The notes: generated from the sequence alone by a model not told the origin. DNA of 64,000 bases from Solirubrobacterales bacterium (GCA_038260305.1 JBBSNY010000010.1:582-64581); one strand, 5' to 3'. Shown: positions 7,780 through 26,891, counted from the first letter of the stretch. Translations and numbers: made by a program.

Positions 7780-7792
7780 GCTCGCCCAGAGG

Positions 7793-8818: not shown

Positions 8819-8826
8819 GGCGCGGA

Positions 8827-9384
8827 TTAGATCAGGCTTGGCCTTGAGACAGACCGGTCACCCGCGGTGGCGCGCCGGTACTCGACGCATGCCATCCCGA
8901 AGACGGGATCCTCGAAGCGGTCGCGTGTCAGGCTCCAGCCCTCGCGCTCGTAGAAGCGCCGCCCGCGACCATGGTCGGCCGGCGTCCACAGCCGCAGCGC
9001 GCGGTAGCCCTGATCGGCGGCGGCTTTCATCGCGTCCGTGTGCAGGAGCGTCGCGAGGCCTCCGCCCCACCATTCGCGGGCGATGAAGAGCTGCCAGAAA
9101 TGCAGCAGCCCCGGCTCGTCGTCGGGGACGCGCGAGTCGGTGGCGGGCAACCAGCCGACATGGCCGACGAGGCGCTCGCCGTCGTGCGCCAGGCAACACC
9201 AGGCGGTCGGCTTGGCGAGCGTCGCCGCGATGCGGCCGCGCTCGCCGTCGAGGCTCGGCGGCTCCCAGCCCGGCGGCCCGAAGTCCTTGTAGCTCTCGAA
9301 GCCGGCATAGACGAGCTCGGCGATCTGAGGCGCGTCGTCGGCGATCCCGGAGCGGAAGGCGAGCTCGTCGCAGGGCGATTGCAT
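8827..9384 (-). CDS. GNAT family N-acetyltransferase
   Basis: ORF 8827..9537(-), trimmed to ATG 9384 (MQSPCDELAFRSGIADDAPQI). Acetyl-CoA motif region FIAREWWGGGLATLL and C-terminal FYEREGW. Confidence 0.8.
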   Translation of the reverse strand: MQSPCDELAFRSGIADDAPQIAELVYAGFESYKDFGPPGWEPPSLDGERGRIAATLAKPTAWCCLAHDGERLVGHVGWLPATDSRVPDDEPGLLHFWQLFIAREWWGGGLATLLHTDAMKAAADQGYRALRLWTPADHGRGRRFYEREGWSLTRDRFEDPVFGMACVEYRRATAGDRSVSRPSLI

Positions 9385-9442
9385 CGCCAGCGGACGATAC
9401 GCCCGCCACCCCGCGGCGCCGCGGGAGGACGGGCGCCGTCGA

Positions 9443-10405: not shown

Positions 10406-10540
10406 GCAGCGATTGTGCGGGCGCGCGCGGCGGCGCGGTGCAAACCAAGGTGTAGAGATCGCCCCCCTACGGCCGCGCTCTATCGTCGCTGCTTCCGATG
10501 ACCGCGTTCTGGATCGTCTTCGGATTTCTCGTTCTACGGC

Positions 10541-10663
10541 GTGTTGAGCGAGATCGTCTGGCTGACGGCCGGCTTCGTCGCGCGCTGGTACGGCGTGGCC
10601 GTGGCGGTCATCGTCGTGGTCGTCGGCCTGCCCGCCCTCGTGCTGTCCGGGTCGCAGTTCTGA
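10541..10663 (+). CDS. small hydrophobic protein (40 aa from GTG; possibly a frameshifted ~55-aa two-helix protein starting at ATG 10498)
   Basis: My translation: VLSEIVWLTAGFVARWYGVAVAVIVVVVGLPALVLSGSQF, with strong G/C at third codon positions. ATG 10498 (MTAFWIVFGF) is in another frame and would join at the T-run 10525-10527. Confidence 0.35.
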   Translation: MLSEIVWLTAGFVARWYGVAVAVIVVVVGLPALVLSGSQF

Positions 10664-10664
10664 G

Positions 10665-10930
10665 TCATTCCCACGGCAGCGGGATGGCGAGCGTGCGGCT
10701 CGCGGCGTCGGCGTAGAACGCACACGACCGCAACGTGCTCGGCGAGCCCGGGACGAGGGTCGCGGCCCGCGGTCCACGGGGACGCCGTGGCGTTCGTGGC
10801 CGAGCCGCACGACCGTGCGGCTGGGCGCGGGCTCCAGGCGCGGCAGGGCGATCGCGCCCTCCGCGAGCTCGACCGCGAGGATCCGCCAGCCGTCGGCGCG
10901 CGGGGCGGTACTTCTCGGCGCTCAACGCGC
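10665..10930 (-). pseudogene. possible C-terminal remnant of a SpoU/TrmH-type RNA methyltransferase
   Basis: Coding-like stretch with no start codon: DGWRILAVELAEGAIALPRLEPAPSRTVVRLGHERHGVPVD. The continuation needs two frame changes (..DPRPGLAEHVAVV.. then ..AFYADAASRTLAIPLPWE*). It resembles the TrmH pattern (substrate-domain strand, GxExxG, IPxxG..SLNV..A..Y) from memory only. Confidence 0.3.
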
Positions 10931-11029
10931 CCAGGCTTGTGCCTTTCCTTGGTCATGGGATGAGGGTACGCCGCGCGTGGGTCGGGCGGGCGCGCGGCGG
11001 GAGGGCGCGGCGCGGCGCGGCGCGAGCGG

Positions 11030-12046
11030 TCAGGCGCCCTTGCGGGCGCGGCTGGGGGCGACCCGCGAGGGCTCGTCGGGCATCTTCGGATAGACGGGCG
11101 GCCACGGTGCGTCGTGCAGGCCGTTCGCGCGGTCGCGTTCGTGCATGTCCAGCAGCGGCTCGAGCGACTGGGGAGCGTCGTTGATCGCCTCCCACGGGTC
11201 GCTGTGGTCCGCGAGATGCTGTGGCACGGTGGCCATCGTGAGCTCGTCGGGATGCAGCTCGTCGACGTCCTCCCAGCGCAACGGCGTGGAGACCTGCGCC
11301 CCCTTTCGCGCGCGTACCGACCAGGCGCCGAAGACGGTCTTGTGCGGCGCGTTCTGGTTGAAGTCGACGAAGATCCGTCGACCGCGCTCCTCCTTCCACC
11401 AGGCGGCGGTCAGGATGTCGGGCCGGCGGCGCTCGAGCTCGCGCGCGATCGCGACGGCAGCCGAGCGCACCTCGTAGGAGTCCCACTTGGGCTGCAGCCG
11501 GACGTAGACGTGCAGGCCGCGGTTGCCGGTGGTCTTGGGGTAGCTGGTGATGCCCAGCTCCTCGAGCAGCTTGTGGACCTCGGTGGCGGCTTTGCGGACA
11601 TCGGTGAAGTCGGTGCCGGGCTGCGGGTCCAGGTCGAGCCTCAGCTCGTCGCAGTGGTCGGGATCGTCCGCGAGGTACGGCCAGACGTGAAAGCCGAGGC
11701 AGGCGAGGTTGACCGCCCACGCGACGTGCGCGCTGTCGGCCGCGACGAGCGCGCGCGACGGCGTGCCGTTGACGGTCTGCACCGTCGTCGTCTGCAGCCA
11801 GTCAGGCGCGCTGTCGGGCACGCGTTTCTGAAAGAACGACGGCCCGCCGGCGCCCTTGGGGAAGCGCTGCATGAGGACCGGCCGCCCGCCCATCGTCCGC
11901 AGCAGCGGCTCGGCGACGGCGACGTAGTAGTCGACGAGGTCGCGCTTGGTCTCGCCGCGCTCGGCGAACAGAACCTTGCCAGGGCTGGTGATGCGAACAT
12001 GTTGGCCGTCGAGCTCGAGAATCTGGGCGTCGTCTTTGGAGGCCAC
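11030..12046 (-). CDS. ligD: LigD polymerase (primase-polymerase) domain protein, NHEJ
   Basis: ORF 11030..12292(-), trimmed to GTG 12046 (VASKDDAQILELDGQHVRITSPGKVLF). Matching stretches: RDLVDYYVAVAEPLL, GRPVLMQRFPKG, DELRLDLDP, YPKTTGNRGLHVYV, IFVDFNQN. No ligase or nuclease domain. Confidence 0.9.
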   Translation of the reverse strand: MASKDDAQILELDGQHVRITSPGKVLFAERGETKRDLVDYYVAVAEPLLRTMGGRPVLMQRFPKGAGGPSFFQKRVPDSAPDWLQTTTVQTVNGTPSRALVAADSAHVAWAVNLACLGFHVWPYLADDPDHCDELRLDLDPQPGTDFTDVRKAATEVHKLLEELGITSYPKTTGNRGLHVYVRLQPKWDSYEVRSAAVAIARELERRRPDILTAAWWKEERGRRIFVDFNQNAPHKTVFGAWSVRARKGAQVSTPLRWEDVDELHPDELTMATVPQHLADHSDPWEAINDAPQSLEPLLDMHERDRANGLHDAPWPPVYPKMPDEPSRVAPSRARKGA

Positions 12047-12329
12047 TGGCCGCAACCGTACCGAGGGCTGGCAGCGGAGCAAACAGGAGACGATGAGGGG
12101 ACGGCCCGGCCCCTGCCGGCGGGACCGCCCATAGGGGTAACGAGACGACGGGCGGTAGGTATCGGTGTTGGCGGATGTAGCGCGGGTCTGCGGTGTAGGC
12201 ATACGCGCAACCTTGCCAACGAGGGCGAGCAACGGCTCGCGGGCCCGCTGCTCGTACCGGAGCATTCCTCCTGTGATGGCGATGTCGCGCATTGCGCAAG
12301 CACGTCAACACCATTGGGATGGTCCCCTC

Positions 12330-12369
12330 TGCACCAACGATAGTGTCCACTGTGCACCAATGATAGTGT
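12330..12369 (+). promoter_or_regulatory. two 17-bp direct repeats immediately upstream of the DUF4143 ATPase start
   Basis: tgcaccaacgatagtgt (12330-12346) and tgcaccaatgatagtgt (12353-12369), 16/17 identical, 23-bp period, in a locally AT-richer stretch ending 6 nt before GTG 12376. Confidence 0.4.
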
Positions 12370-12375
12370 TAGTTC

Positions 12376-13659
12376 GTGCCTCGGAGCCACGGCTACCAGC
12401 GTCGGGTCCTCGATGACGAGCTCGACGCGCTCATGCTCGGCCTGCCCGCGATTGCCTTGGAGGGGCCGAAAGCCGTCGGCAAGACGGCTACCGCTTTGGA
12501 GCGGGCGGCAACTGTGCACGAGCTCGACGACCCCGACCAGCGCGCGGTCGCGGAGGCCGATCCGGACCGTCTGCTCGCCGCCACACCACCGGTGCTCATC
12601 GACGAGTGGCAATTCGTCCCAGCAGTGTGGGACCGGGTCCGTCGTGCGGTCGACGCTGATCGCACTCCTGGTCGGTTCCTCCTGACCGGCTCCTCCTCGC
12701 CAGTGGAGCGCGGGACGCACTCCGGTGCGGGGCGCGTCGTCGATCTACGGATGCGCCCGTTCGCGCTCGCCGAACGGCTGGCGCAGCCGCCGAGCGTCAG
12801 CCTTGAAGAGCTGCTCCGAGGCCGGCGCCCGGTCATCGCCGGACAGTGCAGCCTGACGCTGGAGGACTACACCGACGAGGTCCTCCGCTCGGGCTTCCCC
12901 GGACTGCGTGGGCTTCCAGAGCGTGCGTCGAGAGCGCAACTCGACGCCTACCTGCGGCGCGTCGTCGATCGCGATTTCCCTGAGCTCGGGCGTGCCGTTC
13001 GCAACCCGACCCTGTTGCGGCGGTGGATGGCGGCGTACGCGGCGGCCACGGCGACGTCGACGTCGTTCGAGAAGATTCGTGCGGCAGCGACGGGCGGCGA
13101 GGATGACAAGCCGGCAAAGACGACCGCTCGGGCCTACCGCGACATCCTCGAGCGCCTCTTCATCCTCGACGACCTGCCCGGATGGCAGCCCTCGCGTAAC
13201 CACATCGCGCAGTTCGCCCTGCCCCCAAAGCACCATCTCGCAGACCCAGCCTTAGCTGCCCGGCTACTGGGCGCGGACCGCGACACGCTCCTCAGAGGCT
13301 CGTCGTCCGGGCCGACCGTTCCACGCGACGGCACGCTGCTCGGCGCCCTCTTCGAGTCCCTCGTGACGCTGTCGGTACGGGTGTACGCCCAGGCGGCAGA
13401 GGCCTCCGTCGGACACCTGCGCACGAAGGGAGGCAGGCACGAGGTCGACCTCATCGTCGAGCGCCCCGACGGCAAGGTCATCGCCATCGAGGTCAAGCTG
13501 GGGGCAACCCCTCGCAGCGCCGATACCAAGCACCTGAGCTGGCTGACCGCGGAACTCGGCGACGACCTCCTCGACGCCGTCGTGATCACGACCGGCCGCG
13601 ACGCCTACCGGCGCGAGGACGGCATCGCCATCGTGCCCGCCGCCCTTCTCGGACCCTGA
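12376..13659 (+). CDS. AAA-domain ATPase with DUF4143 C-terminal domain
   Basis: ORF 12376..13659(+). Walker A-like LEGPKAVGKTATA and Walker B-like VLIDEWQ. FLLTGSS and HEVDLIVE..KVIAIEVK are typical of AAA_14+DUF4143 proteins (recognised from memory). Confidence 0.8.
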   Translation: MPRSHGYQRRVLDDELDALMLGLPAIALEGPKAVGKTATALERAATVHELDDPDQRAVAEADPDRLLAATPPVLIDEWQFVPAVWDRVRRAVDADRTPGRFLLTGSSSPVERGTHSGAGRVVDLRMRPFALAERLAQPPSVSLEELLRGRRPVIAGQCSLTLEDYTDEVLRSGFPGLRGLPERASRAQLDAYLRRVVDRDFPELGRAVRNPTLLRRWMAAYAAATATSTSFEKIRAAATGGEDDKPAKTTARAYRDILERLFILDDLPGWQPSRNHIAQFALPPKHHLADPALAARLLGADRDTLLRGSSSGPTVPRDGTLLGALFESLVTLSVRVYAQAAEASVGHLRTKGGRHEVDLIVERPDGKVIAIEVKLGATPRSADTKHLSWLTAELGDDLLDAVVITTGRDAYRREDGIAIVPAALLGP

Positions 13660-13821
13660 GGACCGCACGGCGGAACTCCAGGTCGTCGTGGATCAAGGCC
13701 TGCACGTTCTGCCGGACGAACGCCAACCTTCGCGGGCGTCGAGTTGGCAGCGCGCTTCGTGGGAGTCTCCCCCGGATCATCGCATCGCGGAGCGGAGGAC
13801 GGGACCGTACATCGACGGCGT

Positions 13822-15078
13822 CTACTCAGACGGTGTGCGGTCGCTCTGGCCGAAATGAGCCGAGGCAGCCCGCAGGTCGCCGATCAGCTCGACCACCGTC
13901 TGCTCCTCCTGCACGATGCGACCGACTGTGGCCATCGCGGTGGCGAGCTCCGCGAGCGACGCGTCATCGGGGGGCGCCAGCGGGCGCCGATCCGCCAAAA
14001 CGCTGCCGCCGCCGGCGTGCCGGTGGTACTCGTCGGGGTTCATCCGCCAGAGGCGCCCGTTCGTGATCGCGAGGAGACGGTCGAGGATGCGCAGGCCCTC
14101 GGGATCCATGTCGCCGTGGTGGCGGGGCGCAGCGCCGCCCTCGATCGTCGCCCGCAGCAGGCGCAAACAGGCCGTTGATGGCCATCCGCTCGTACACACG
14201 AGCGGTGGGCAGTTCTCGCCGAGGTCGTCGGCGGCCGCGGTCATGACGTCGGGGTTCTCGCAGGTGAAGACCGTTGGGCCGCATGCCAGGCACGAGATAC
14301 CGCGCAGTTCTCGCAGCGTCAGCACGCGTGGCTGCGGACATCCGGGCCACACGCCCAGGCACAACACGGTGCTCGACAGCTCGTCACAGCCGAGGCCCCA
14401 GCGGTCATAGCGTGCCCGTCGCGCCTCCGCGCCGCCGCCGCCGGAATCGGTCTCGCCGTCGAGTGCCGCCAGCGCTCGTCGTACCGCCCCGTCGAGCGAG
14501 CGGTCGCGATCGAGGGCATGCGGATCGCCGCCGCAGCACGACGCGGCGAAGCGCGCGAGTGTCTGCGGCGGATCGGCCGGGAGCGCCGCGACGACGGCGA
14601 GCGCGTGTTGCAGGAGCCCGAATGGGTCGCCGCCGCCGGTCCGGGCCGCGGCGCCGGTGGCGCGTTCGCGTTCGAGCCACGACTCGAGATCGGGGTGGCG
14701 GCGCAGCGCCGGGTGCGAGCGCAGCGCGCCCCAGCCGCCCTCGAGTGCCGCGGCCGCGGTGAGCCGGGCCGCACGGCGGTCGACGAGCGGGGCGCCGCCG
14801 AAGCCGGCGCACGACTCGACAAGCCCGCCGGCAAAGCGGGGGGACTCCCGCATCGCCGCGTCGAGCGCGGCGAGATCGACGCTCGCCGTCGCGCCGGGGA
14901 GCACCGCTCGCCAGCGCGGCCCGAGCAACCCCGACAACTCACGGATCTCATCCTCGCGAAGGTCCGCGAGGCGCAGGCGCCCGGCCGCGCGCAGGCCGTT
15001 GCGTTCAAGGCGCCGCGCGGCGTCGCGCAGAACGCGTGTGAGGCCGCCGGGGCCCGGCACCGGCTCTGCGGGGCTCAC
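13822..15078 (-). CDS. jetD: Wadjet type II JetD-like protein (TIGR02679/DUF2399, Toprim-like C-terminus)
   Basis: ORF 13822..15294(-), trimmed to GTG 15078 (VSPAEPVPGPGGLTRVL). C-terminal VFTCENPDV...PLVCTSGWPSTACLRLL...HHGDMDPEGLRILDRLL. Last gene of the four-gene operon. Confidence 0.8.
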   Translation of the reverse strand: MSPAEPVPGPGGLTRVLRDAARRLERNGLRAAGRLRLADLREDEIRELSGLLGPRWRAVLPGATASVDLAALDAAMRESPRFAGGLVESCAGFGGAPLVDRRAARLTAAAALEGGWGALRSHPALRRHPDLESWLERERATGAAARTGGGDPFGLLQHALAVVAALPADPPQTLARFAASCCGGDPHALDRDRSLDGAVRRALAALDGETDSGGGGAEARRARYDRWGLGCDELSSTVLCLGVWPGCPQPRVLTLRELRGISCLACGPTVFTCENPDVMTAAADDLGENCPPLVCTSGWPSTACLRLLRATIEGGAAPRHHGDMDPEGLRILDRLLAITNGRLWRMNPDEYHRHAGGGSVLADRRPLAPPDDASLAELATAMATVGRIVQEEQTVVELIGDLRAASAHFGQSDRTPSE

Positions 15079-15179
15079 CCGTTGACGACCTCCGTCTCGC
15101 AGCACCCACGCGCGGCGATCGGCTGCGGCTGCGGCTCCGGCTGCGGCTTGGAGCGGGTCACCCGTCGACGACCTCCGTC
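15075..15179. repeat. direct duplication of the jetC-stop/jetD-start junction (22-nt repeats, 83-bp period)
   Basis: tcacccgttgacgacctccgtc (15075-15096) against tcacccgtcgacgacctccgtc (15158-15179), 21/22 identical. The spacer contains ggctgc/ggctcc hexamer repeats. Confidence 0.8.
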
Positions 15180-18100
15180 GTCGTTTGCCCGTCCCACACG
15201 AAATGCTGGGCCCACACCCCCCACTCGGCGTTCTCGCGATGCAGCTCGTAGAAGCCGACGCGCGGGACGGTGGCGACGCACGGGTTGAGGTCATACGACG
15301 TCATCACCCAGTCCAGATCGAGCTCGACGAGCAGCGCGAAGACCTGCTCGCGGGTCTGTGGGTCGATGCCGTCCATCGCCTCGTCGAGCGCGACGATGCG
15401 CGGCGCACCGGGCGCGAGGTCATACAGCGCCGCGGCCGTCGCGAACAGCGGCAGGTGCATCAGCACCGACTGCTCGCCGCCGGAACCGAGGCCCTGCGTG
15501 CGCGGTGTGAGCTTGCGAACCGAGCCGTCGGGCTCGTGCAGGTGCAGCGTGAAGCGCCACCAACGCCGGTAGTCCAGTGCCACCGACAGGTGGTCGACGA
15601 TCGCCGTCTGCGACGCCTCGTCGGCGGCACCCGCCCGCGCGTCGGCGATCCGCTGCTCGAGGAAGGCAAACAGCGCGTCGCGCTGCGCCTTGGCGACGTG
15701 CTCGGTCGACCGGTCGCCCAGCAACGCGAGCACCGCCGCCGGCGCGCCCGCATCCTCGTCGACGTCCCACGACAGGCTGACGCTGCGCCCGGCGCCCGTC
15801 GGGCAGCGTCGGAGGATCTCGTTGCGGGCGCGCACGGTCGCCCGGACCGTCGTGATCCGCCCGCGCAGGTGCTCGGCGATCTCGGCGAGCAGCGCCTTGC
15901 CGAGCACCTCGCGGCGCCGCGCCGACAGCACCTGCTCGCGGTGCTCAAGGTCGCCGTCGAGGTCTGAGAGCATCGTCGACGGCGTACGGCGGTGGCCTGC
16001 CCGCGTGATCTCCACGAGGGTGAGGTCGTCGCTTGTGAACGACACCGCGTCCATGTCGAACGCCACCAGCTTCTGACCCAGCCGGCTGACAGCATCGCTG
16101 AGGCGCCGCGCGCGGGCGGACAGGTCGACGTTCGCATCGAGCACTGGGAGCGCCCGGACCCGGTCGAGCGCGGTCGTCAGCGGCCACGTCGCGGCCAGGC
16201 GCTCGTCCTCCGGTGACGCATGCGGACCGACCGCCGCCGTGAAGAGGTCATGCTCGCCGAGCCTCCGAACCCCGTCCAGCGCGGCGACGCGCTCCGTCTC
16301 CGCGATCGCAACCTGGGCGACCGCCTCGCCCGCGAGCCGCTCGGTGTCCTTCGCCGCGCCGATCGCGTCGCGATGTGCCTGCTCGGCGCCATCGCGCGCG
16401 CCATCGAGGCGATGGATGTCGGCGCGCAGGGCGGCCACGCGCGCACGCAGTTCGGACACGCTGGCACCGTCCGTCGTCTCGGCGGCCGCGAGTCGACCGG
16501 CCGCGGAGGCCTCGTCGTCCTGAGCCGCCCGCAGATCGTCGGCCGCCTCGCGGTGAGCGGTCTCGGCGTCGCCCAACGCGCGCCGCGCCGCGTCGACGCG
16601 GCACCGTGCACCGGCGGCATCGAGCAGCGCCTGCTGGGTGCGTTCGCATTCGAAGCCGGCGCGATCGATCGCCTCGGCCGCGGCGCGCAGCGCCGCCGCG
16701 TCCGTCGGCAGTCGCGTGGAGCCCGCGTGGGCGTGAAGCGCGTCGCGCGCGCCGGATACGTCGCGCTCGTATCGCTCGCGCTGCACGACGAGCTCGCTCA
16801 GCTGCTCCTCCCGCGCGGCGAGGCGATCCGCCGTCCGGCGCTCCGCGCGCAGCGCGCTGCGCAGCTCGGCGACATCGGGCAGCGACCGCCGCTCGCGGGC
16901 GAGCTGTTCGCGCGCCGCGGCGACCTGTTCGAGCTCCGCGTCGACGCGCTGCAGCTCCTCCTCGAGGCCGCCGACAACGGCCCGCGCCTGCGACAGCAGG
17001 CGCTCGCGGAGCGCGGCGCGGGCGGCGGCGCCGATGTACTCGGCGACCGGCTTGGCGGCGCGTCCGCGCAGGGGGCCGAAGCGAAAGCGCCCGGGCGCGA
17101 CGCTGACCGGGCCGTCGAGCGCAATCGACCGCAGGACACGCGTCACGACCGCAGCGTCGATCGAGCGCGCGCCCGGGGCCGCCACGAGCATGTCCGCGAG
17201 CGTCGCGCGTGTGCCCGCCCCCGCGCCACCGGTGTCAAGATCCCCGTCGGCTATCAGAGTCAGATCGGCGTCGTGCACGCTGCCGTCCGGCGCGATCCAG
17301 GCATCGAGGATTCCGGCATCCTCGAGCGCGGCTTCGAGCAGCGGTCGCTGCTCGTCCGGCAGGTCCGCTGCGAAGTCGCAGACCGCCCACAGCGGCGCGC
17401 CGGGCCGGCCGTCGCGCGAAGCGCGGCGCGGATGCAGCACCGGAGGCTCCGGATCCTGGCGCTCCTCGATCTCCCCCACGCGGGCGACGGCGCTGGCCAG
17501 CTCGGCGCTCAGGGTGGAGCGCCGGCTCGTGACCCGCGCCTGCTCCCCGGCGAGCTCGTCGACCCGTCCGGCCGCGAGCTCGGTCAGCAGCGCGCCGGGA
17601 TCGCCGTCCTGCGCGGCGAGCGCGGCGAGCCGCTCGAGCTGCTCGTCGCCGATCGACAGCTCGCGCAATGACAGCCGCCACGCCTGCAGCCCGTCATCGA
17701 AGCACTCCAACGCGTCCTCCAACAGCGAGTGGCACGTCGCGGCAGCCACCGCAGCCTCGTCGCGCCTCGTCGCCGCGAGCGCGAGCGGGTCGGCGATCGC
17801 GCGCATCACCTCGAGCGCGGACGCGAGCGTGGCGGCGAGCATGCTCGCGCGCTGCACGTCCTGGGCACGAACCGCCATCCGACCAGGGAGCGCGTCGAGC
17901 GCGGCTCGCTCCGCGACCGGGCAGTCGAGGCCGACCTGCGACAGGAGCGCGGCGAGCCGCGCGAGCACCGCCGTGACCGCTTCCTCCGCGGCAAGCGCGG
18001 CCGCCTGCTCCTCGGCGAGCAGCGTGCCGGCCACGTCGAGCTGGTCGTGCAACCGGGTCGCACTTGCACCCGCCCGCGCCGCCCGCCGCTGCGCCTGCTC

Positions 18101-19177
18101 GTGCTCGCGCGCCCGCGCCTCGAGCAGGCCGACGGCCTTGTAGGCCTCCGAACCGACGAGCTCGAGGTGCTCCTCGGTGACTCTCCGGTGATCGGTCTGG
18201 ACGCGCCCGACCGTCGCCGCCGCCCCGGCGAGCGCCTCCTTGGCAGCGGCATGACCGTCCTCGCACGCACGAGCGCTCGCGCGCGATCTGTCGTACACGC
18301 CGACCGCCGCCTTCAGCCGCTCGCCGCGAACCGCCAGCACGCCGCGCGCATAGCTGCGGCTCTCGCCACTGACGAGCGAGGCAACCTCGCCGCGCGCGTC
18401 ACGCAGCTCGTCGTGCTGACGTTGCAGTTCGTGCAGCTGTTCGAGCGCGTCGCCCAGCTTGCGCACGAGCGCCTCGTCGACCGCCGGCAGCGCGCCCGAC
18501 AGCATCGTCGACAGTCCCTTGACGTTCAGGCTGTCCGACAGCTTCGGCTTGCGCAGCTGGCGGATGATCTCGAGCATCTGCTCGTACAGCTCCGGGGTCG
18601 CGAACGGCATGAGCTGCGCGCGCAGCGCCTCCTTGTAGGCCGTCGGCCCGTCGTGCAGCGCGCCGCCCGCGCGCAGCTGATCGACGAGGTCGCTGCGGAC
18701 GACGGGCTGCATCCCGCCGTCTCCGACGAGGCGGGTCAGCTCGAGGTCGGCTCCGACACGCAACGGCGTCGTGAAGTACCAGCGGTCCTTGACCCCGTCG
18801 GCGCTGCGCGTCGCCTCGAGCCCGATCCCACAGGTGAGAAACCGCTCCGATCCGTCGTCGTCGACGACGCGGAACTCGGCCCACACGTAGCCGACGCGCT
18901 TCGTGGCGCGCCGCTCTGGATACGGATCGGTGCACTCGATGAGGTTCCAGCGCATCGTCTTCGCCGACGAGGCGAACGGGTCGAGCTTGCGCGGCGTGAT
19001 GTCGCCGTCGAGCACGAACGGGATCAACAGCTCGAGCGCCTTGCTCTTGCCCGAGGTGTTGCGCCCACGCAGGGCGAGGCGGCCGTCCTCGACCGCGAAC
19101 TCCTGGTCGGCGTACTCGTAGAGCCCGACGATGCCGAGCCGGTGCGGGCGGAAGCGGGCGACGGGCGGGGCGGTCAT
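15158..19177 (-). CDS. jetC: Wadjet type II JetC-like SMC/Rad50-family ATPase (TIGR02680-like), 1339 aa
   Basis: ORF 15158..19456(-), trimmed to ATG 19177, which overlaps the jetB stop (ATGA). Walker A LRGRNTSGKSKALELLIPFVLDG. Long Ala/Glu/Arg/Leu-rich coiled-coil-like middle. Signature and Walker B GLGSGGEQSVLMHLPLF...PRIVALDEAMDGID. Confidence 0.9.
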   Translation of the reverse strand: MTAPPVARFRPHRLGIVGLYEYADQEFAVEDGRLALRGRNTSGKSKALELLIPFVLDGDITPRKLDPFASSAKTMRWNLIECTDPYPERRATKRVGYVWAEFRVVDDDGSERFLTCGIGLEATRSADGVKDRWYFTTPLRVGADLELTRLVGDGGMQPVVRSDLVDQLRAGGALHDGPTAYKEALRAQLMPFATPELYEQMLEIIRQLRKPKLSDSLNVKGLSTMLSGALPAVDEALVRKLGDALEQLHELQRQHDELRDARGEVASLVSGESRSYARGVLAVRGERLKAAVGVYDRSRASARACEDGHAAAKEALAGAAATVGRVQTDHRRVTEEHLELVGSEAYKAVGLLEARAREHEQAQRRAARAGASATRLHDQLDVAGTLLAEEQAAALAAEEAVTAVLARLAALLSQVGLDCPVAERAALDALPGRMAVRAQDVQRASMLAATLASALEVMRAIADPLALAATRRDEAAVAAATCHSLLEDALECFDDGLQAWRLSLRELSIGDEQLERLAALAAQDGDPGALLTELAAGRVDELAGEQARVTSRRSTLSAELASAVARVGEIEERQDPEPPVLHPRRASRDGRPGAPLWAVCDFAADLPDEQRPLLEAALEDAGILDAWIAPDGSVHDADLTLIADGDLDTGGAGAGTRATLADMLVAAPGARSIDAAVVTRVLRSIALDGPVSVAPGRFRFGPLRGRAAKPVAEYIGAAARAALRERLLSQARAVVGGLEEELQRVDAELEQVAAAREQLARERRSLPDVAELRSALRAERRTADRLAAREEQLSELVVQRERYERDVSGARDALHAHAGSTRLPTDAAALRAAAEAIDRAGFECERTQQALLDAAGARCRVDAARRALGDAETAHREAADDLRAAQDDEASAAGRLAAAETTDGASVSELRARVAALRADIHRLDGARDGAEQAHRDAIGAAKDTERLAGEAVAQVAIAETERVAALDGVRRLGEHDLFTAAVGPHASPEDERLAATWPLTTALDRVRALPVLDANVDLSARARRLSDAVSRLGQKLVAFDMDAVSFTSDDLTLVEITRAGHRRTPSTMLSDLDGDLEHREQVLSARRREVLGKALLAEIAEHLRGRITTVRATVRARNEILRRCPTGAGRSVSLSWDVDEDAGAPAAVLALLGDRSTEHVAKAQRDALFAFLEQRIADARAGAADEASQTAIVDHLSVALDYRRWWRFTLHLHEPDGSVRKLTPRTQGLGSGGEQSVLMHLPLFATAAALYDLAPGAPRIVALDEAMDGIDPQTREQVFALLVELDLDWVMTSYDLNPCVATVPRVGFYELHRENAEWGVWAQHFVWDGQTTTEVVDG

Positions 19178-20376
19178 GCGAGCTCCATCTGGGTCTGGGC
19201 GGCGCGGCGGCCGACGGCCGCGCGGTAGCGGTGGGCAACCGGCAGCGTCTGGATCGCGCCGGTGACCAGGTCGCGCCGGACGAGACGGAGGTCCGTGAGC
19301 ACCTCGAGCGCAGTGCGACAGGCGCGATCGACGGCGTCCGGATCGCGTGGGTCCCACGTCGACCAGTGCTCGGCGTGTCGGCGCAGCAGCGTGCGGGCGA
19401 TCGCGTGCAGCTCCTCCGCGGAGATCGACGAGCCACGGCCCGCGTCGCGCGCACACAGCTCTGGGATCAGCAGCAGCGCGAGCTGCTTGACATGACCGCG
19501 CGCGGGAAACGGCCGGTCGCTGAGCTCGCGGCCGGTCGCGACGAGCGCCGTGCCCTCGCGACGACGCTCGACCGCCAGCCCGGTGATCCGCTGCGCGATC
19601 GCCTCGAGGCGTCCGCGCTGCGCGACGAAGTACATCCGGTCCTCCTCGTCGAGGTCGTCGAGGTACAGGACCGGGTCCTCGACGAGCGCGCGTAGGAGGC
19701 GGCGCGAGCGCGCACGACCGGCGAGCTCGCCACCGCTCTCCTCGGGCGCCTGCAGGTCGCGCGGCTCGACGGCCTCTGCCGTGCGCACGGCGTCGATCAG
19801 CAGCAGTGCCAGCCGGCGGCGGTGGACGTCATAGAACGCCTCGTCGTCGCTCGCCAGCTCCCCGGCCGCGCCGGCGCGCAGCTCCAGGACGCCGGCCGCG
19901 ACGAGGAAGGCCATGGCGTCGTTGAGCGCGAGCCGGTCGGCCCGCGAGCGCCAGTCGAGCGTCACGTCGAGCGAGCGGGCGTGGGCCAGCACCTCCTCGG
20001 CGAGCGCGCCGAGCGGCACCTGCGTCCACGACTTGCGCTCGAGCACCCCCGCGACGACGCAGGCGAGCACGCAGCCGCGTTGCTGCAGCGTGCGGCGCTC
20101 GTCGACGGGCTTGGAGCGCTCGTTGGCGCTGCGCGGCGCGAGCCGCAGCGGCCGCGCGCCGGCGAGGGTGACGCGCTTGGCGAGGTGCGCGGTGTCGGCG
20201 GTGACGGTGAGCGTGGCACCGAGGTGGTCGCGCAACGTCGCGGCGAGCTCCTCGCGATGGCGACGGGCGAGCGCGAACTCCGGGTCGCGGGGCGTCAGCA
20301 GCTGGCGTTCGAGCAGCGCGCGGACGGCACGCAGGCGCTCCTCGGCGGCAGCCTGGGCGACGGCGTCGGGGTTCAC
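19174..20376 (-). CDS. jetB: Wadjet type II JetB-like protein (TIGR02678/DUF2398-like)
   Basis: ORF 19174..20376(-), 400 aa. Its GTG start overlaps the jetA stop (GTGA). Position and size fit. Helical, with the pattern ...LLERQLLTPRDPEFALARRHREEL...DEAFYDVHRRRLALLL recalled for DUF2398. Confidence 0.75.
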   Translation of the reverse strand: MNPDAVAQAAAEERLRAVRALLERQLLTPRDPEFALARRHREELAATLRDHLGATLTVTADTAHLAKRVTLAGARPLRLAPRSANERSKPVDERRTLQQRGCVLACVVAGVLERKSWTQVPLGALAEEVLAHARSLDVTLDWRSRADRLALNDAMAFLVAAGVLELRAGAAGELASDDEAFYDVHRRRLALLLIDAVRTAEAVEPRDLQAPEESGGELAGRARSRRLLRALVEDPVLYLDDLDEEDRMYFVAQRGRLEAIAQRITGLAVERRREGTALVATGRELSDRPFPARGHVKQLALLLIPELCARDAGRGSSISAEELHAIARTLLRRHAEHWSTWDPRDPDAVDRACRTALEVLTDLRLVRRDLVTGAIQTLPVAHRYRAAVGRRAAQTQMELA

Positions 20377-21923
20377 CGCTGGACCTCGATCGCGTAGTCG
20401 GGGCAGTCGAGCTGCCCGTGCTCGGCGGCAACCGTCGTTCGCTCGCCGTCAGGCGGAGGCACGAGCCGCAGGCGCATGCCGCCGTCGGCGGTCGTGGCAC
20501 GACGCGTGCCGTCGCGCTCGCGGGGCTGGGCGAACGCCCGCGAGAGCAGGCCGAGCAGGTGCTCGAGCTCGACCGGGTGCAGGCGGTGCAGCTCGCTCAT
20601 CCGCAGCGTGGCCCCCGTGCCGAGCCGCGCGAGCAGCCGTCCGAGGTGCTCCTGCTCGGCGGACTGCGCGGCACGCACGCGGTCGGCGAGACGATCGTTG
20701 AGCGCCAGCCGCGCCGGCGTGCCGGAGCCGGGGATCCGCGTGCCCGGGGTGCGCAGGTGGGCGGCGACCCTGATCGGCGGAGCGTCGCGCCAGGGCGTGG
20801 ACCCGGGGCTCGAAAGCTGGTCGGCTTCGGGATCGGGCCCGGCGAGGTGGCGCGGCGCGCGGATGCCGGTCGCGACGGCCATGCAGGCCGGCGCCGTCAG
20901 CGCGTCCGCGTCGGCCACGATCCGCGCGAGGCGATCCCACGCAGCGGCACGATCCCGGTGCCCGGCGGCACGGTCGATGAGGCGCTCGGCGATGTCGATG
21001 ATCGCGCGGATCGCGTCGAGCAGCTTGTCGGTCAGCAGCGCCCACGGCGCCTCCGCCTCGCCGGGCCGGCCGAACCACGCGCGGACGCCGTCCCAGCGGG
21101 CGCGCAGCGTGCGGAGGGCCTGCGCGGCGAGCTGCTCGGGCGTCAGGTCGCCGATCGCCGGCGGCAGCGGGCGTCCGGAGAGCACGAGCTCGACGAGGCG
21201 CCCGGTCCCGAGCCGCTCGATCTCTGCGATCGCCGCGAAGATCGGCTCGGCGTGGCGGCGCAGATCACGATGAAAGCCCTGCAGGTAGCCGACGATCACG
21301 TCCTGCTGGACGACGAACTCCTCGCTCGTGATGCGATCGGACGCCGTGAACGCCTGGAGCTGCGTCATGAAGTCGGTCGCGCCCTGGCGCAGGGCGGCGA
21401 CGGCGTCGGCCACGGTCTCGAGGTCCTCGCCGAGGCGCTGGACGTCAGGCTCGGCGGCGGCGAGCTCGTTCGCGATGCGCGCAAGCGTGTCGCGGATCGT
21501 GAGCAGGCGGCCGGACTCGAGGGCGCCGATCTCCTCGCCGAGGGTGTCCAGCTCGGCGAGCAGCCGCTCCACGCGCTCGCCGGACGGCGTGATGTCGTAG
21601 ACCGAGCGCTTGCGACGCCACTCCTCGGCCGAGGTAACGGCGCGCGTGTCCGCGCGGGCGGCGAGCACCCGTTCGCCGACGAGGCGTTCGAGCGTCCGGT
21701 CGAGCACGTCGTCGTCGAGCGTCGCTCCGAACTCGGTCGCCAGCCGCTCGCGCACGTCGCCGGGCGCCAGCTGCCATCCGATGTCGCGCGTCTTGTTGAG
21801 AAAGAAGACGCGCATCACGCGCCGGTAGCGCTCGGCGTGCTCGCCGATCGCGTAGCTGACCTCGCGGCGCTCTGGCAGCCCGGTCGACATCACGAAGAGG
21901 GCCGGGCTCGAGGAAGAATCCAT
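20373..21923 (-). CDS. jetA: Wadjet type II JetA-like protein (TIGR02677/DUF2397-like)
   Basis: ORF 20373..22055(-), trimmed to ATG 21923 (ATG 21890 also possible). N-terminal YAIGEHAERYRRVMRVFF resembles the TIGR02677 N-terminus. First gene of the operon. Confidence 0.75.
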   Translation of the reverse strand: MDSSSSPALFVMSTGLPERREVSYAIGEHAERYRRVMRVFFLNKTRDIGWQLAPGDVRERLATEFGATLDDDVLDRTLERLVGERVLAARADTRAVTSAEEWRRKRSVYDITPSGERVERLLAELDTLGEEIGALESGRLLTIRDTLARIANELAAAEPDVQRLGEDLETVADAVAALRQGATDFMTQLQAFTASDRITSEEFVVQQDVIVGYLQGFHRDLRRHAEPIFAAIAEIERLGTGRLVELVLSGRPLPPAIGDLTPEQLAAQALRTLRARWDGVRAWFGRPGEAEAPWALLTDKLLDAIRAIIDIAERLIDRAAGHRDRAAAWDRLARIVADADALTAPACMAVATGIRAPRHLAGPDPEADQLSSPGSTPWRDAPPIRVAAHLRTPGTRIPGSGTPARLALNDRLADRVRAAQSAEQEHLGRLLARLGTGATLRMSELHRLHPVELEHLLGLLSRAFAQPRERDGTRRATTADGGMRLRLVPPPDGERTTVAAEHGQLDCPDYAIEVQR

Positions 21924-22220
21924 GCCGCGAACGGGTCGTCCCCGGCGTCGGACATGATCTGACAGAAAGGCATCGACATCGGATCGTGGAGCGTAGGCGC
22001 GAGTCCGGTCAGAACTGCGGGATCGAGCGGTCCGCGCCGCGCGCTGGCCACACAAGGTCGAGCCTCAGCCGCGGCAGCGTTTGTCCCTGGGCGTCGGGGC
22101 GCATCGGAAGCAAACGCGATCGGGCGCTGTGCTGCTGCCCCGGCCGCGATCCATCCGCCTGGCTGCGGATACGGGCGCGGTGACTTCCTCCTACGCGGGA
22201 ACTAAAGGTTGCCGCAGCAC

Positions 22221-22240
22221 TGACGCGTCAAACTATAGTT
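22221..22240. promoter_or_regulatory. two adjacent perfect 10-bp palindromes at the abiEi start
   Basis: TGACGCGTCA (22221-22230) followed directly by AACTATAGTT (22231-22240). The second overlaps the TTG start at 22239 and contains a TATAGT -10-like hexamer. Confidence 0.35.
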
Positions 22241-22847
22241 GAGGCAACGCACGCCTACTGACCGCCGAGATCTGCGTCGCCGGCTGTTCGCACTGTCCGC
22301 GGACCAGGCCGGCTATTTCACGGCCGCCCAGGCGAAGGCGGTCGGATACTCGTACCCCGCCCAGGCGCATCATGTGGGCGCAGAGAACTGGATCCGCGTC
22401 GACCGCGGCATCTTCCGCCTTGCCGATTGGGTGCCCGGCATCCACGACGAGCTCGCACGCTGGTATTTGTGGTCGAAGGAGCGTGCGGTCGTGTCGCACG
22501 ACACTGCGCTTGGTGTGTACGAGGTCGGCGAGTTCGAGTCGAGGCGCATCCATCTGACCGTCCGTCCCGGGTTCCGGATGAGGGACGACGCGCTGATTCT
22601 GCACACGGCTGATCTGCCCGCGGAGGATGTCGAGATCCGCCCGGGCTATCGCGTGACGAAGCTCGCGCGGTCACTGATCGATGTCGCCGCCGAGCACCCC
22701 GACGAGGACCAGCTCGCACGCGCGATCGGGGAGGCGCTCGCCCGCGGCACGGTTACGCGCCGTCAACTTCGGACCCGCGCCGAGGCAGTTGATCCACTGG
22801 CCGCCCTTCGCGTCGAGCGGGCGCTCGGCGTGCTGGGGCTGATGTGA
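22239..22847 (+). CDS. abiEi: AbiEi-family antitoxin / transcriptional regulator
   Basis: ORF 22239..22847(+), TTG start. N-terminal ADQAGYFTAAQAKAVGYSYPAQAHHVGAENWIRVDRGIFRL is the AbiEi winged-helix pattern. It overlaps the next ORF by GTGA. Confidence 0.8.
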   Translation: MRQRTPTDRRDLRRRLFALSADQAGYFTAAQAKAVGYSYPAQAHHVGAENWIRVDRGIFRLADWVPGIHDELARWYLWSKERAVVSHDTALGVYEVGEFESRRIHLTVRPGFRMRDDALILHTADLPAEDVEIRPGYRVTKLARSLIDVAAEHPDEDQLARAIGEALARGTVTRRQLRTRAEAVDPLAALRVERALGVLGLM

Positions 22848-23471
22848 CCTATGGCACGCCGCAGGCCCTGCGAACCGCGCTAGAGGCACGCATCCGCATC
22901 GAGTCCGCGACAACTGGGCTTCCTCCGGATCGGCTACGCCGCCGCGTCGTCTTTCAACGGATCGCGATGCGGCTTCAGCGTGCAGAGCCGCGGTCGACGT
23001 CGACCTGGCTGGGCGCCGGTTCGGAGCGATCAAGCTCGACATCTCACCCCGCTCTCACGAGCTCGACGCGACGGACACGATCGGGCTGCCGAACGCGCTC
23101 GAGTTTGCGGGATTCGGCTCGGTCGCTGTCGAGGTCGTCGACATCCACCGCCATGCCGCCGAGAAGCTCCACGGCATGCTCAAGGACTTCGGGGAGCGCG
23201 AGAACTCGCGTGTGCGCGACCTCGCAGACCTGATGCTGATGCTCGATGCCGACCTCGTGTCCGCTGACCAGCTCGCCGATGTCGTGACCGACGTGTGGGC
23301 GGAACGCGACGCAACCAACCCACCCACCGTGCTCCCGGACCTGCCGACGGGCTGGCCAGCGCGATATGAGCGCCTCGCGACCGAGAACCGGATCAAGCCG
23401 ACGTCTTTGCCACCGCCGCCGATGTCGCAGCGGCGCTGTGGCGCTCGATGTTCCCGCCCGACTCCAGGTGA
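22844..23471 (+). pseudogene. abiEii: decayed AbiEii (DUF1814 nucleotidyltransferase) toxin gene
   Basis: The N-terminus MTYGTPQALRTALEARIRIESATTGLPPDRLRRRVVFQRIAMRLQRAEP is in frame 2. The continuation ..LAGRRFGAIKLDIS...HRHAAEKLHGMLKDFGERENSRVRDLADLMLML...WPARYERLA is in frame 1. The tail VFATAADVAAALWRSMFPPDSR* is in frame 0. The W.LKGG / DxD catalytic core expected between the first two pieces is missing. Confidence 0.7.
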
Positions 23472-23601
23472 TCGCATGCGCAACAGGTCGCTCGGAAGTT
23501 CGAAGAACTCGACCGTCGCGGCGACCGACAGGGGATCGCCATTCGGCTCCAGATCGGCAATCTCCGCCTCGTCGGCGCCTTTCTCGCGGCTCCGAGGGTG
23601 A

Positions 23602-23675
23602 TCGGGGAGACAGGATTTGAACCTGCGACCGCCCGGCCCCCAGCCGGGTGCGCTACCAGACTGCGCCACTCCCCG
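23602..23675 (-). tRNA. tRNA-Pro (anticodon GGG)
   Basis: Hand-folded: CGGGGAG-TG-GCGC-AGTCTGGTA-GCGC-A-CCCGG-CTGGGGG-CCGGG-CGGTC-GCAGG-TTCAAAT-CCTGT-CTCCCCG-A, 74 nt. Confidence 0.9.
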
Positions 23676-23688
23676 TGGCCGTGCTTGA

Positions 23689-23759
23689 AGCGGGCGACGG
23701 GAATCGAACCCGCCCTAAAAGCTTGGAAGGCTTTTGTGCAGCCACAACACTTCGCCCGC
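23689..23759 (-). tRNA. tRNA-Gly (anticodon TCC)
   Basis: Hand-folded: acceptor GCGGGCG/CGCCCGC, anticodon arm AAAGC-CTTCCAA-GCTTT, T arm GCGGG-TTCGATT-CCCGT, discriminator T. 71 nt. Confidence 0.85.
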
Positions 23760-23856
23760 ACGCCCGGCGGGAGGATACCGGCTGTGGCCCAGGCTGGCGA
23801 CGCGCACCGCGGCGGCCGCGTACCGCGCGGCCATTGCCCGCGACCGCCCGCCAGGC

Positions 23857-24842
23857 TCAGCCGCGCAGCTTCGCGAGCTGGCGCTTGAGCTCGGCGAACG
23901 CCGGCCGCGGCTTGCCGTCCGAGCCGATGAAGGCCGAGTCCCAGCTGTCGCGCGGCGTCGACGAGTCCCAGTGGTAGAAGTAGATGCGCGTGATCCGCTT
24001 GCTCACGCGCGCGAGCTTGCGGAAGATGAACTTTGTCGCGTGGGCGGCGTGGACCTTGCCCTGCGCGAGCTTGATCTTCGAGCCGTTTCGCCGCGCGACG
24101 AGGCCGCCGATCTCCGTCAACCAGACCTCCCCGGGGACGGCCCGAAGCAGCGCCTTCGTGCGCGTCGTGTGCGCGCGGTTCGCGTCGATGTAGTCGTGCA
24201 GGCCCCAGTACTTCGGCTCGACCTTCGCCGCGCGCCGGAACGCGCGCGCCCACGAAACCGCGTTGTTCTGGTCGAGCAGGTCGGCCGCCAGCACCTCGCA
24301 GCCCGGGCAGTTCTTGCGAATCGCGTCGAAGTACGCGACCACGAGCTTGGGCTTGCGGCACGTCCCGGTCCCGCACTGGTTGGCTTCGTTCCAGGCCGAG
24401 TACGTCTTGATGTCCGGATAGCGCGCTCGGAACGTGAGGAACTGAGCCTTGAGGCGGCGGCCGTCGGCGGCTTGCGGCCGCTCGGCCCCGTCGGGCGGGC
24501 GAACGTCAGCAGCGGCTGTGCGTCCATCGAACGCGCCCCCGCCACCCACTCGTCCAGCCGAGCGGTCTCGTCCGGCGACTTCAACGCATCCCAGGCGACC
24601 GAGCGGCGGGCGTAGCCCAGACCGAGGCCGCGCAGCCGCGCGTCCGCGAACCCCGAAGCCTTCTGGTCGGCGATCCCGACCTTCACGTGGAGCCTGCCAG
24701 TCACCGGACTCAGGCGAGCGGCGTCCGCGACGGAGGCCGACAGCACGAAGAACGCCCCGACGACGGCGAACACGCAACGAGCACTCCGGTGCGGCGAGGC
24801 GACCATCGCGCCGCAGACTAGCCCCGCCATCCTCTGCCGCAC
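23857..24842 (-). pseudogene. secreted glycoside-hydrolase-like protein (TIM-barrel GH-A type) with an internal frameshift
   Basis: The N-terminal half is in the frame of ORF 24117..24842 (signal peptide MVASPHRSARCVFAVVGAFFVLSASVADA, VGIADQKASGFADARL...DAQPLLTF). The C-terminal half is in the frame of ORF 23857..25230 (LKAQFLTFRARYPDIKTYSAWNEANQ...YWGLHDYID...VWLTEIGG). The frames switch near 24455-24500. This could also be a sequencing error. Confidence 0.6.
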
Positions 24843-24885
24843 CCCACCTGGCGCGCAAACCCAGCATCTCCGGGGCTTCCGACAG

Positions 24886-24956
24886 CGGGGGACCCAGGAA
24901 TCGAACCTGGCGTTGCGGTTTTGGAGACCGCCGTGTTACCGATACACTAGTCCCCC
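24886..24956 (-). tRNA. tRNA-Trp (anticodon CCA)
   Basis: Hand-folded: GGGGGAC-TA-GTGT-ATCGGTA-ACAC-G-GCGGT-CTCCAAA-ACCGC-AACG-CCAGG-TTCGATT-CCTGG-GTCCCCC-G. Confidence 0.9.
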
Positions 24957-25205
24957 TCGCGGGCCGCGCATTGTAGATGGCGCCCCGACGGCGAGCATCG
25001 ACCCGATGCCTCTGGAGCCTGACCCGCAGGGACTTCGTCGGTGTTCTCCTCCCGACCTGTCGGCGCGTGCGCAGCGTACCCGACGACCCCGCCGCGAGAA
25101 GTCCATGCATCGGGTAGCTCCTGCCATGGCGCCCGCTACCCTCCAGGTAGATCATTGCGCATGCAACCACTTTGACCCGACGACCACCGACCCAAGGGGA
25201 ACCCC

Positions 25206-25757
25206 ATGAGCGCCACCACCACCACCGCACTGCCGACTGGCACCTGGAACGTCGACCTCGCCCACTCCCACGTCACGTTCAGCGTCCGCCACATCGGCAT
25301 CTCGAAGGTGCGCGGCGAGTTCGCCGCCTACGAGGGCCAACTCGTCATCGCCGAGGACGGCACCGTCACGGCCTCGGGCTCGGTTGATGTCGGCTCGATC
25401 GACACCCGCGATGCCAATCGCGACGGGCACCTTCAGTCGGCGGACTTCTTCGACGTCGAAAACAACCCGAAGATCACGTTCCAGTCGACCTCGATCAGCG
25501 CGATCGACGACGAGACCTACGAGATCACCGGCGACCTGACGATGCACGGCGAGACGAAGCCGATCACGCTCAAGGCCGAGCTCGGCGGCACCGAGACCGA
25601 CGCCTTCGGCGCGGAGCGCGTCGGTCTCGACATCACCGGCGAGATCAGCCGCGGCGACTTCGGCATGAAGTTCAACATGGCGCTTGGCAGCGGCAACGTC
25701 GTCGTCAGCGACAAGGTCAAGGTCGAGCTCGACATCTCGGCGATCAAGGCCTCCTAG
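25206..25757 (+). CDS. YceI-family polyisoprenoid-binding protein
   Basis: ORF 25206..25757(+). Matching stretches: HSHVTFSVRHIGISKVRGEF, DTRDANRDGHLQSADFFDVENNPKITF, GDLTMHGETKPI. Confidence 0.9.
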   Translation: MSATTTTALPTGTWNVDLAHSHVTFSVRHIGISKVRGEFAAYEGQLVIAEDGTVTASGSVDVGSIDTRDANRDGHLQSADFFDVENNPKITFQSTSISAIDDETYEITGDLTMHGETKPITLKAELGGTETDAFGAERVGLDITGEISRGDFGMKFNMALGSGNVVVSDKVKVELDISAIKAS

Positions 25758-25819
25758 AGCCTCGGCGTGCCGGGCGTCAGACTGCACTCGGTGGACCTCC
25801 CTCCTCCTCCCTCCGAGCG

Positions 25820-26755: not shown

Positions 26756-26891
26756 ACCAAGCCGTTCCCGGCTCCGTCCCCGGTCCTCCGGAGACCCCGA
26801 GCCGCCGCCGCGAGCGAGGCGCCACGCGATGTCCATGCATCCGCGACATCGAGCCATGGAACATCGCTCCCTCGAAGCGGAGGATGTTGGC

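Follow-up and report, generated by a model that had tools for sequence, protein, structure and literature searches.

How does a compact cluster of defence genes come to sit directly against a tRNA gene: as one mobile island, as the remnant of one, or as something assembled piece by piece? The question is raised by a 64,000-nt stretch of a Solirubrobacterales bacterium (GCA_038260305.1 JBBSNY010000010.1:582-64581; the whole stretch is called the window below), which has a GC content of 72% and whose best protein relatives are metagenome-assembled genomes (MAGs) of Solirubrobacterales/Solirubrobacteraceae. An initial annotation had described a defence-island-like accessory block ending at tRNA-Pro. 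We conclude, with a probability of roughly 75%, that this block is an accessory, now non-mobile mosaic of three defence/toxin-antitoxin cassettes in a lineage-wide hotspot at tRNA-Pro(GGG) of a Solirubrobacteraceae-like chromosome.

The minimal block (12,047-23,601, ~11.5 kb) consists of a DUF4143/AAA_14 ATPase, a type II Wadjet operon, an AbiE pair and nothing else; its non-coding DNA comes in pieces of 329, 162, 315 and 139 bp. At least two defence-related systems are therefore clustered in 11.5 kb, namely Wadjet II and the AbiE remnant, together with the PDC-S01 candidate. Its left neighbour is a stand-alone primase-polymerase, LigD Prim-Pol (LigD-pol; 11030-12046, minus strand; Pfam LigD_Prim-Pol, E 5e-92). 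On the right, ARAGORN places tRNA-Pro(GGG) at 23602-23675 on the minus strand, with its 3′ end pointing toward the block as originally described, followed by tRNA-Gly(TCC) (23689-23759, minus strand; ARAGORN), where the conserved right backbone starts. Pfam, PADLOC and TIGR matches name every gene between LigD-pol and tRNA-Pro; all are of accessory type, and the profile matches bear out each identity first assigned by eye (DUF4143 AAA ATPase, Wadjet-like operon, AbiEi and decayed AbiEii). We class the block as a defence island in a hotspot, possibly with an integrative-island remnant, and not as an integrative element, because two of the features that define one, an integrase and attachment (att) sites, are wanting.

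The two sides of the tRNA pair

Relatives were found by locus searches with LigD-pol relatives, with the tRNA-Pro/tRNA-Gly junction pattern, which retrieved 120 metagenome loci, and with homologues of a glycoside-hydrolase-like (GH-like) gene; the loci fetched for comparison (n = 222) carry L-numbers. The hotspot is defined from ~12 syntenic contigs and ~76 metagenome loci, not from a pan-genome. The right backbone runs tRNA-Gly, GH-like gene, tRNA-Trp, YceI, AraC-like gene, glyoxalase and two tRNA-Leu genes. It is syntenic with L206, L087, L092 and L208-L213, and several junction-pattern loci keep the same order (GH-like, YceI, glyoxalase and onward). tRNA-Pro is 100% identical in the relatives, and the homology of every relative to the window begins at 23600-23602, that is, at the tRNA-Pro 3′ end.

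The block is absent from the syntenic site in L206, L207, L208-L213, L087, L092 and L174. The closest relative, L206 (GH-like protein 88% identical), is colinear with the window at 81-86% nucleotide identity over window positions 7255-10463 and 23601-27770. Between these flanks it holds DUF3311, SSF, LigD-pol, an AMP-binding enzyme, a cupin and a 28%-identical AbiEi, in 6.6 kb as against 13.1 kb in the window. What lies beyond tRNA-Pro changes from locus to locus: a 1565-aa kinase-nSTAND-WD40 protein in L207; HNH_2, an oxidoreductase and LigD-pol in L208; Mrr, RadC, type I restriction-modification (RM) genes with embedded AbiE and an integrase in L209; a helix-turn-helix (HTH) gene, integrase and transposase fragments and a reverse transcriptase in L210; HNH_2, GmrSD, type III RM and two ThsB_TIR genes in L211; a transposase, MTaX1, a cytosine methylase, GmrSD and an nSTAND NTPase in L213; and a different, intact AbiEi/AbiEii pair in L087. 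L174 has one SPW-repeat gene between its g9443 homologue and tRNA-Pro. The defence cargo in relatives thus includes Mrr, type I and III RM, GmrSD, ThsB_TIR, AbiE, reverse transcriptase and nSTAND. The order from LigD-pol/g9443 to tRNA-Pro differs even in the closest relatives. A gene order conserved across the family, which the initial annotation had named as the mark of ancestral core, is not seen, and the comparison supports the accessory, defence-island reading.

Variation extends to the strain level. Three loci from a single sample (L209, L210 and L211; ERZ25039476) share a 3.5-kb stretch that ends with the last base of tRNA-Pro and is 99.3-99.9% identical among them; past that base they are unrelated, a strain-level polymorphism in which the hotspot holds three different defence islands. 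As a control for taxonomic breadth, open reading frames (ORFs) within 2.6 kb of the tRNA pair were clustered on both sides. On the tRNA-Pro side 113 ORFs fell into 101 clusters, with any family shared in 15/76 loci; on the tRNA-Gly side 133 ORFs fell into 52 clusters, with a family shared in 65/79 loci. By these counts the DNA is hypervariable next to tRNA-Pro and conserved next to tRNA-Gly.

tRNA-Pro as an attachment site in relatives

Comparison with relatives also shows that tRNA-Pro(GGG) serves as attB for tyrosine-integrase islands. L222, the same contig as L209 and reached by extending it, contains a 12.3-kb island (L222:6090-18490) bounded by perfect 46-nt direct repeats (tRNA positions 29-74), one of which lies within the tRNA. 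Its cargo comprises a 430-aa tyrosine integrase, HsdR, AbiEi/AbiEii inside a type I RM operon, HsdM, a probable HsdS, RadC and Mrr. L217/L218 carry the same 46-mer without the full tRNA, followed by ~100 nt that are 85% identical to the end of the L222 island, and their integrase is 84% identical in nucleotides to that of L222. Their AbiEi/AbiEii pair is the closest intact one to the window's (80% in nucleotides) and has the same orientation relative to the att copy. In L196 (1387-6739) the 3′ part of tRNA-Pro recurs as two additional 44-nt copies, at distances of 0.95 kb and 5.2 kb from the tRNA, which suggests tandem insertions at the same att site.

The att core in relatives (44-46 nt) runs from the anticodon loop to the tRNA 3′ end. 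Integrases sought by size among 20 tRNA-adjacent ORFs yielded none, and a tally of 120 ORFs contained two Phage_integrase matches. The tRNA-targeted geometry proposed for the window is real for the lineage, because integrase islands with 44-46-nt repeats occupy the same site in L222, L217/L218 and L196.

Separate cassettes within the block

At least three cassettes, each with its own bounds, make up the block as a mosaic, and it is not demonstrably one island. Homology to the Wadjet cassette breaks off sharply at its edges, as does homology to the AbiE cassette; both cassettes occur elsewhere in unrelated contexts, and none of the fetched loci holds two of the three modules together.

The Wadjet genes all lie on the minus strand: jetA (DUF2397, 516 aa; 20373-21923; Pfam DUF2397 E 1e-100, PADLOC JetA2 E 1e-86, TIGR02677), jetB (DUF2398; 19174-20376; Pfam DUF2398 E 2e-62, PADLOC JetB2 E 4e-67, TIGR02678), jetC (SMC-like ATPase; 15158-19177; PADLOC JetC2 E 3e-282, TIGR02680) and jetD (DUF3323 + DUF2399, the Toprim-type nuclease subunit; 13822-15078; PADLOC JetD2 E 1e-90, TIGR02679). 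The reading frames are uninterrupted and full length and cover the TIGR02677-TIGR02680 profiles end to end: JetC spans positions 1-1354 of 1356 in TIGR02680 and has the Walker A motif GRNTSGKS and the Walker B motif LDEA, and JetD, with a GTG start at 15078, spans positions 2-382 of 382 in TIGR02679. The jetC ATG at 19177 overlaps the jetB stop. The operon thereby resembles type II Wadjet in its four genes jetA-B-C-D, overlapping stops and starts, full-length profiles and JetC Walker motifs. The JetA product, on record as P0003, has its best matches (82-87%) in Solirubrobacteraceae, a divergence similar to that of LigD-pol.

By blastn against L081 and L082, the cassette extends over 13868-21940 (minus strand); this stretch is 78-84% identical in nucleotides to jetABCD of L081, and homology stops at the operon edges. 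The jetABCD operons of L081, L082/L083 and L084, which belong to other Solirubrobacteraceae, lie in three unrelated contexts. At the jetC/jetD junction the window differs from L081 by 57 extra nucleotides (15096-15152), which have no counterpart there and repeat the jetC end (GGAGGTCGTCxACGGGTGA); jetD therefore starts 79 nt past the jetC stop, without overlap, and is uncoupled from it. A decaying Wadjet operon is seen at L084:10001-12950, where jetA is intact, jetB in fragments, jetC reduced to ~70 codons and jetD absent; it adjoins a PemK/RHH toxin-antitoxin pair. In characterized systems the SMC-like JetABC loads on DNA and extrudes loops, and its stalling on small circular DNA licenses a JetD cut, which results in plasmid restriction; this mechanism was worked out mainly for type I (10.1101/2022.10.04.510915; PMC10889018), and a type II structure has been reported (10.1101/2025.03.10.642339). 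By analogy, the operon in the window would be expected to restrict plasmids, with JetABC extruding loops and JetD cleaving.

The AbiE cassette (22200-23462, plus strand; blastn/tblastn against L214 and L217) comprises a promoter/palindrome region, an intact abiEi (22239-22847, plus strand; PADLOC AbiEi E 5e-62) and a broken abiEii (22844-23462, plus strand; PADLOC AbiEii fragments at profile positions 7-53 and 182-251). AbiE normally works as a type IV toxin-antitoxin and abortive-infection pair whose AbiEi partner doubles as repressor of the operon (Dy et al. 2014, PMC3985639; Beck et al. 2020, PMC7319586). Like the described systems (PMC3985639; PMC7319586), this one is bicistronic with a 4-nt overlap (GTGA at 22844-22847), an AbiEi winged-helix N-terminal domain and promoter palindromes; unlike them, its toxin gene is gutted and frameshifted. 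The closest AbiEi homologues (86-88% amino acid identity) are each followed by an intact 287-aa AbiEii (L214, L217). Against these intact loci the window aligns over 22200-22989 and 22993-23462 and skips 238 bp of the toxin gene. This deletion, at 22990-22992, removes AbiEii residues ~50-128 including the KGG...DLD nucleotidyltransferase core, and a frameshift near 23406 is a second lesion. The two lesions confirm the decay first noted by eye and inactivate the toxin; lacking its catalytic core and frameshifted, AbiEii leaves only the AbiEi antitoxin/repressor as a component that can be functional. AbiEi would then persist only as a DNA-binding autorepressor, an antitoxin without a toxin.

The genes abiEi and jetA diverge from a 315-bp region with AbiEi-type palindromes, and the 259 bp between the two cassette edges (21941-22199) are unique to this genome. 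The orphan AbiEi may have been recruited as a regulator of the adjoining Wadjet operon. We regard this as very doubtful; if true, a toxin-antitoxin remnant would gate an anti-plasmid SMC system. To the right, a unique 139-bp spacer (23463-23601) that matches nothing in the 222 loci forms the junction with tRNA-Pro.

The third module is the AAA_14 + DUF4143 ATPase (12376-13659, plus strand; Pfam, PADLOC PDC-S01), which matches PADLOC PDLC04790 (PDC-S01) at E 1.2e-80 over profile positions 11-417 of 422. It has no homologue in any of the 222 fetched loci and no relatives found among viral contigs. It does have matches on 191 plasmid records, and the best plasmid match (61% amino acid identity) comes from Prosthecochloris aestuarii, a green sulfur bacterium. 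We found nothing specific in the literature on DUF4143 together with defence, and this PDC-S01-type ATPase is a defence candidate only.

Base composition is likewise uneven. GC content at third codon positions (GC3) is 0.803 in abiEi and 0.829 in the ATPase gene, both below all 27 backbone genes (0.853-0.948); it is 0.857 in jetD and 0.90-0.925 in jetA-C, which are typical of the backbone. The initial annotation had also called both ends of the block GC-poor. That holds at the left, where 12056-12375 (GC 0.637) ranks in the lowest 1.6% of same-size windows. The second dip, 22056-22238 (GC 0.672), is weak, falling only in the lowest 12%; it is the intergenic region from which jetA and abiEi diverge and so lies inside the block, not at an end.

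Weighing the origin of the block

Taken together, separate edges, separate relatives and unequal GC3 suggest that several distinct acquisitions would have brought in the content. For the AbiE module next to the tRNA, the probable vehicle is an island of the L217/L222 family, from which the integrase, attR and the catalytic core of the toxin would have been lost afterwards.

Several observations count against this reading. The window itself shows no direct sign of an integration event: Pfam finds no integrase in the block or in the ~8 kb to its left and right, and no repeat of the tRNA-Pro 3′ part rises above chance anywhere in the window. The tie of the AbiE module to the integrase islands is cassette homology only, the flanking sequences do not match those islands, and the same AbiE subfamily occurs in L214 in a non-tRNA-Pro context, beside tRNA-Met. 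Overall GC does not deviate either (block 0.7237, window 0.7197, well within the spread of 11.5-kb windows). All relatives are MAG or metagenome contigs at ~72-88% protein identity, and no same-species genome without the block was found among the loci compared. Finally, the defence role of every module is predicted from family membership.

The missing mobility functions had been noted by eye, and the searches agree. Named genes fill the block and leave no room for an integrase. A Smith-Waterman scan with the 46-nt att core gave a best non-self score of 34 of 92, and the repeat sought at the far side of the block does not exceed chance level in such alignments. The block cannot move by itself as a unit; if it was once mobile it is now fixed or degraded, as first suggested, being without integrase and without att.

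Could the cargo have changed without any integrase? Homologous exchange is thought to be the route of turnover at integrase-less core defence hotspots, and here recombination could have run through the tRNA cluster and left-flank arms after uptake from related strains. The 100% identical tRNA-Pro and conserved flanks would provide the arms, most occupied sites in relatives have no integrase within 10 kb, and there is precedent in E. coli hotspot #37, most of whose occupants lack a detectable mobile element (PMC10121019). On the other hand, integrase islands with perfect att repeats do use tRNA-Pro in this lineage, and the left flank of the window is itself rearranged, with LigD-pol inverted and the SSF/DUF3311 pair missing. 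The data do not separate homologous exchange from the decay of integrated islands, and we consider it unlikely, though worth keeping in view, that no integrase ever acted here.

We find it improbable that the whole 11.5-kb block entered once, as a single integrase island whose integrase and distal att decayed beyond recognition. Its size is near that of the 12.3-kb att-bounded L222 island, its right edge coincides exactly with the tRNA 3′ end, and a weakly att-like stretch (31/46) lies in the left junction at 12075-12119. That stretch scores 32 of 92 in the att scan, however; one other place in the window reaches this value and a third surpasses it, and the counterpart in L206 resembles att less. 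Entry in one piece also sits poorly with the separate edges of Wadjet and AbiE and their separate relatives in unrelated contexts, with GC3 that differs among the modules, and with the lack of any fetched locus holding two of the three together.

An ancestral core block that relatives have lost would account for an overall GC equal to the window's, the native-like codon usage of jetA-C and the Solirubrobacteraceae affinity of JetA (82-87%, a divergence like that of LigD-pol). Yet all three modules are missing from the site in each of the ~12 syntenic relatives, and their jetABCD operons lie elsewhere; because each relative holds different cargo, which repeated loss alone could not produce, this explanation is contradicted and highly improbable.

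Equally improbable are junctions created by assembly, as a chimera at a repeated tRNA in a metagenome contig: although a Logan contig ends inside tRNA-Pro, suggesting a branch point in the assembly graph, and several strains differing at the site coexist in one related sample, that contig (16,025 nt, from run X1, probably the source sample; depth ~50) matches 10400-23598 with 0 differences and connects the left backbone, from ~7.6 kb on, with the entire block and the tRNA, and both flanks are syntenic with one L206 contig. A second assembler therefore reproduces the abiEii lesions.

The left boundary

LigD-pol does not mark a stable border. Its orientation in the window is the reverse of that in L206, L208, L152 and L115 (blastn to L206: 82%, opposite to the backbone), and the gene is absent near the site in L174, L207, L209-L211 and L213. 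In L152 and L115 it lies 0.4-0.5 kb from tRNA-Pro. Among the best 80 of 583 related stretches the LigD-pol protein is 69-86% identical and none has a neighbour gene of the window; the MAGs that hold them bear the labels Actinomycetota, Dormibacterota and Chloroflexia. No record matched the LigD-pol protein exactly. Homology of the backbone to L206 and L174 stops at ~10,463-10,468, and 10464-11029 has no counterpart in L206. Since four relatives have LigD-pol the other way round and others lack it, the rearranged region may begin at ~10,464.

We found no inverted or direct repeats flanking LigD-pol that could explain the inversion, and a simple LigD-pol inversion was discarded as a model since the orientation of the conserved element described below does not fit it. 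A suspected SpoU/TrmH relic at 10665-10930 was also dropped, with no Pfam match at E <= 0.01 in two ORFs tried.

The left junction proper (12047-12375; GC 0.64) is a divergent intergenic region with two distinct features. One is a ~80-nt GC-rich non-coding element (12072-12149) conserved with L206 (17689-17724, 92%), where the surrounding intergenic DNA is not. Its place in L206 is upstream of the g9443 homologue; the window has it shifted by ~1.55 kb, to beyond LigD-pol. Part of it, 12075-12119, is the stretch that resembles the 46-nt tRNA-Pro att core (31/46, direct orientation). We dropped this stretch as a candidate attR, its score not being significant and the L206 counterpart being less att-like; that the element may be a decayed attR marking an old island end is a weaker proposal than the recruitment of AbiEi as a regulator. 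The other feature is a pair of 17-bp direct repeats (TGCACCAAyGATAGTGT) at 12330-12372, with a 23-bp period, ending 3-4 nt before the ATPase start; the repeats resemble an operator.

Other features of the locus and its relatives

Three further observations concern the surroundings of the hotspot. The GH-like gene of the window (23857-24842; Glyco_hydro_cc-type), between tRNA-Gly and tRNA-Trp, matches its intact 318-326-aa homologues in a single frame over no more than its ~210 C-terminal residues; the gene is apparently frameshifted in the window, and L087, L206 and others have it intact. In L213 a short-chain dehydrogenase and two contractile-injection-system tube genes (Phage_T4_gp19/CIS_tube) lie between the GH-like gene and tRNA-Gly (L213:10994-13260), and this insertion is a second, smaller variable point in the backbone. 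In L207 the protein directly after tRNA-Pro (L207:1788-6485) combines Pkinase, nSTAND1 and WD40 and is followed by an FHA/GerE protein; judged by its domains, the 1565-aa product is a candidate STAND-type immune sensor.

Relation to known hotspots and significance

Islands that integrate into tRNA genes by tyrosine integrases reportedly include an anticodon-loop sublocation class, a scheme attributed to Williams in 2002. Like such islands, the block abuts the 3′ end of a tRNA, and L222, L217/L218 and L196 have the corresponding 44-46-nt identity block together with an integrase inside. Unlike them, the block in the window has neither an integrase nor a second att copy and is at most a remnant.

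Defence hotspots at tRNA genes are well documented in other bacteria. Across the pan-genome of E. coli 18/41 of them lie at tRNA genes, and at hotspot #37 mobility genes could not be detected in 68% of the occupants (Hochhauser et al. 2023, PMC10121019). Core defence hotspots are also known in Pseudomonas aeruginosa, many of their occupants again without recognisable mobility genes (Johnson et al. 2023, PMC10250203). The locus described here shares with these hotspots its conserved flanks and strain-variable, defence-rich cargo, with Wadjet and AbiE among it. It differs in belonging to a different phylum and to uncultured soil Solirubrobacteraceae of ~72% GC, and in that defence is read from the genes alone. 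Conceptually it repeats what E. coli and Pseudomonas had already shown, and the block is a clear but ordinary defence island without mobility of its own.

For the family itself, the comparison documents a defence/integration hotspot at tRNA-Pro(GGG) in Solirubrobacteraceae, abundant but essentially uncultured soil Actinomycetota, with junctions exact to the base pair, polymorphism at the level of strains and an att core defined as 46 nt. The integrase/att pair of L222 could serve as a genetic tool for Solirubrobacteraceae, and the hotspot is a practical place to mine new defence genes, among them the 1565-aa kinase-nSTAND-WD40 protein, the HNH_2 proteins and a trypsin-endonuclease fusion.

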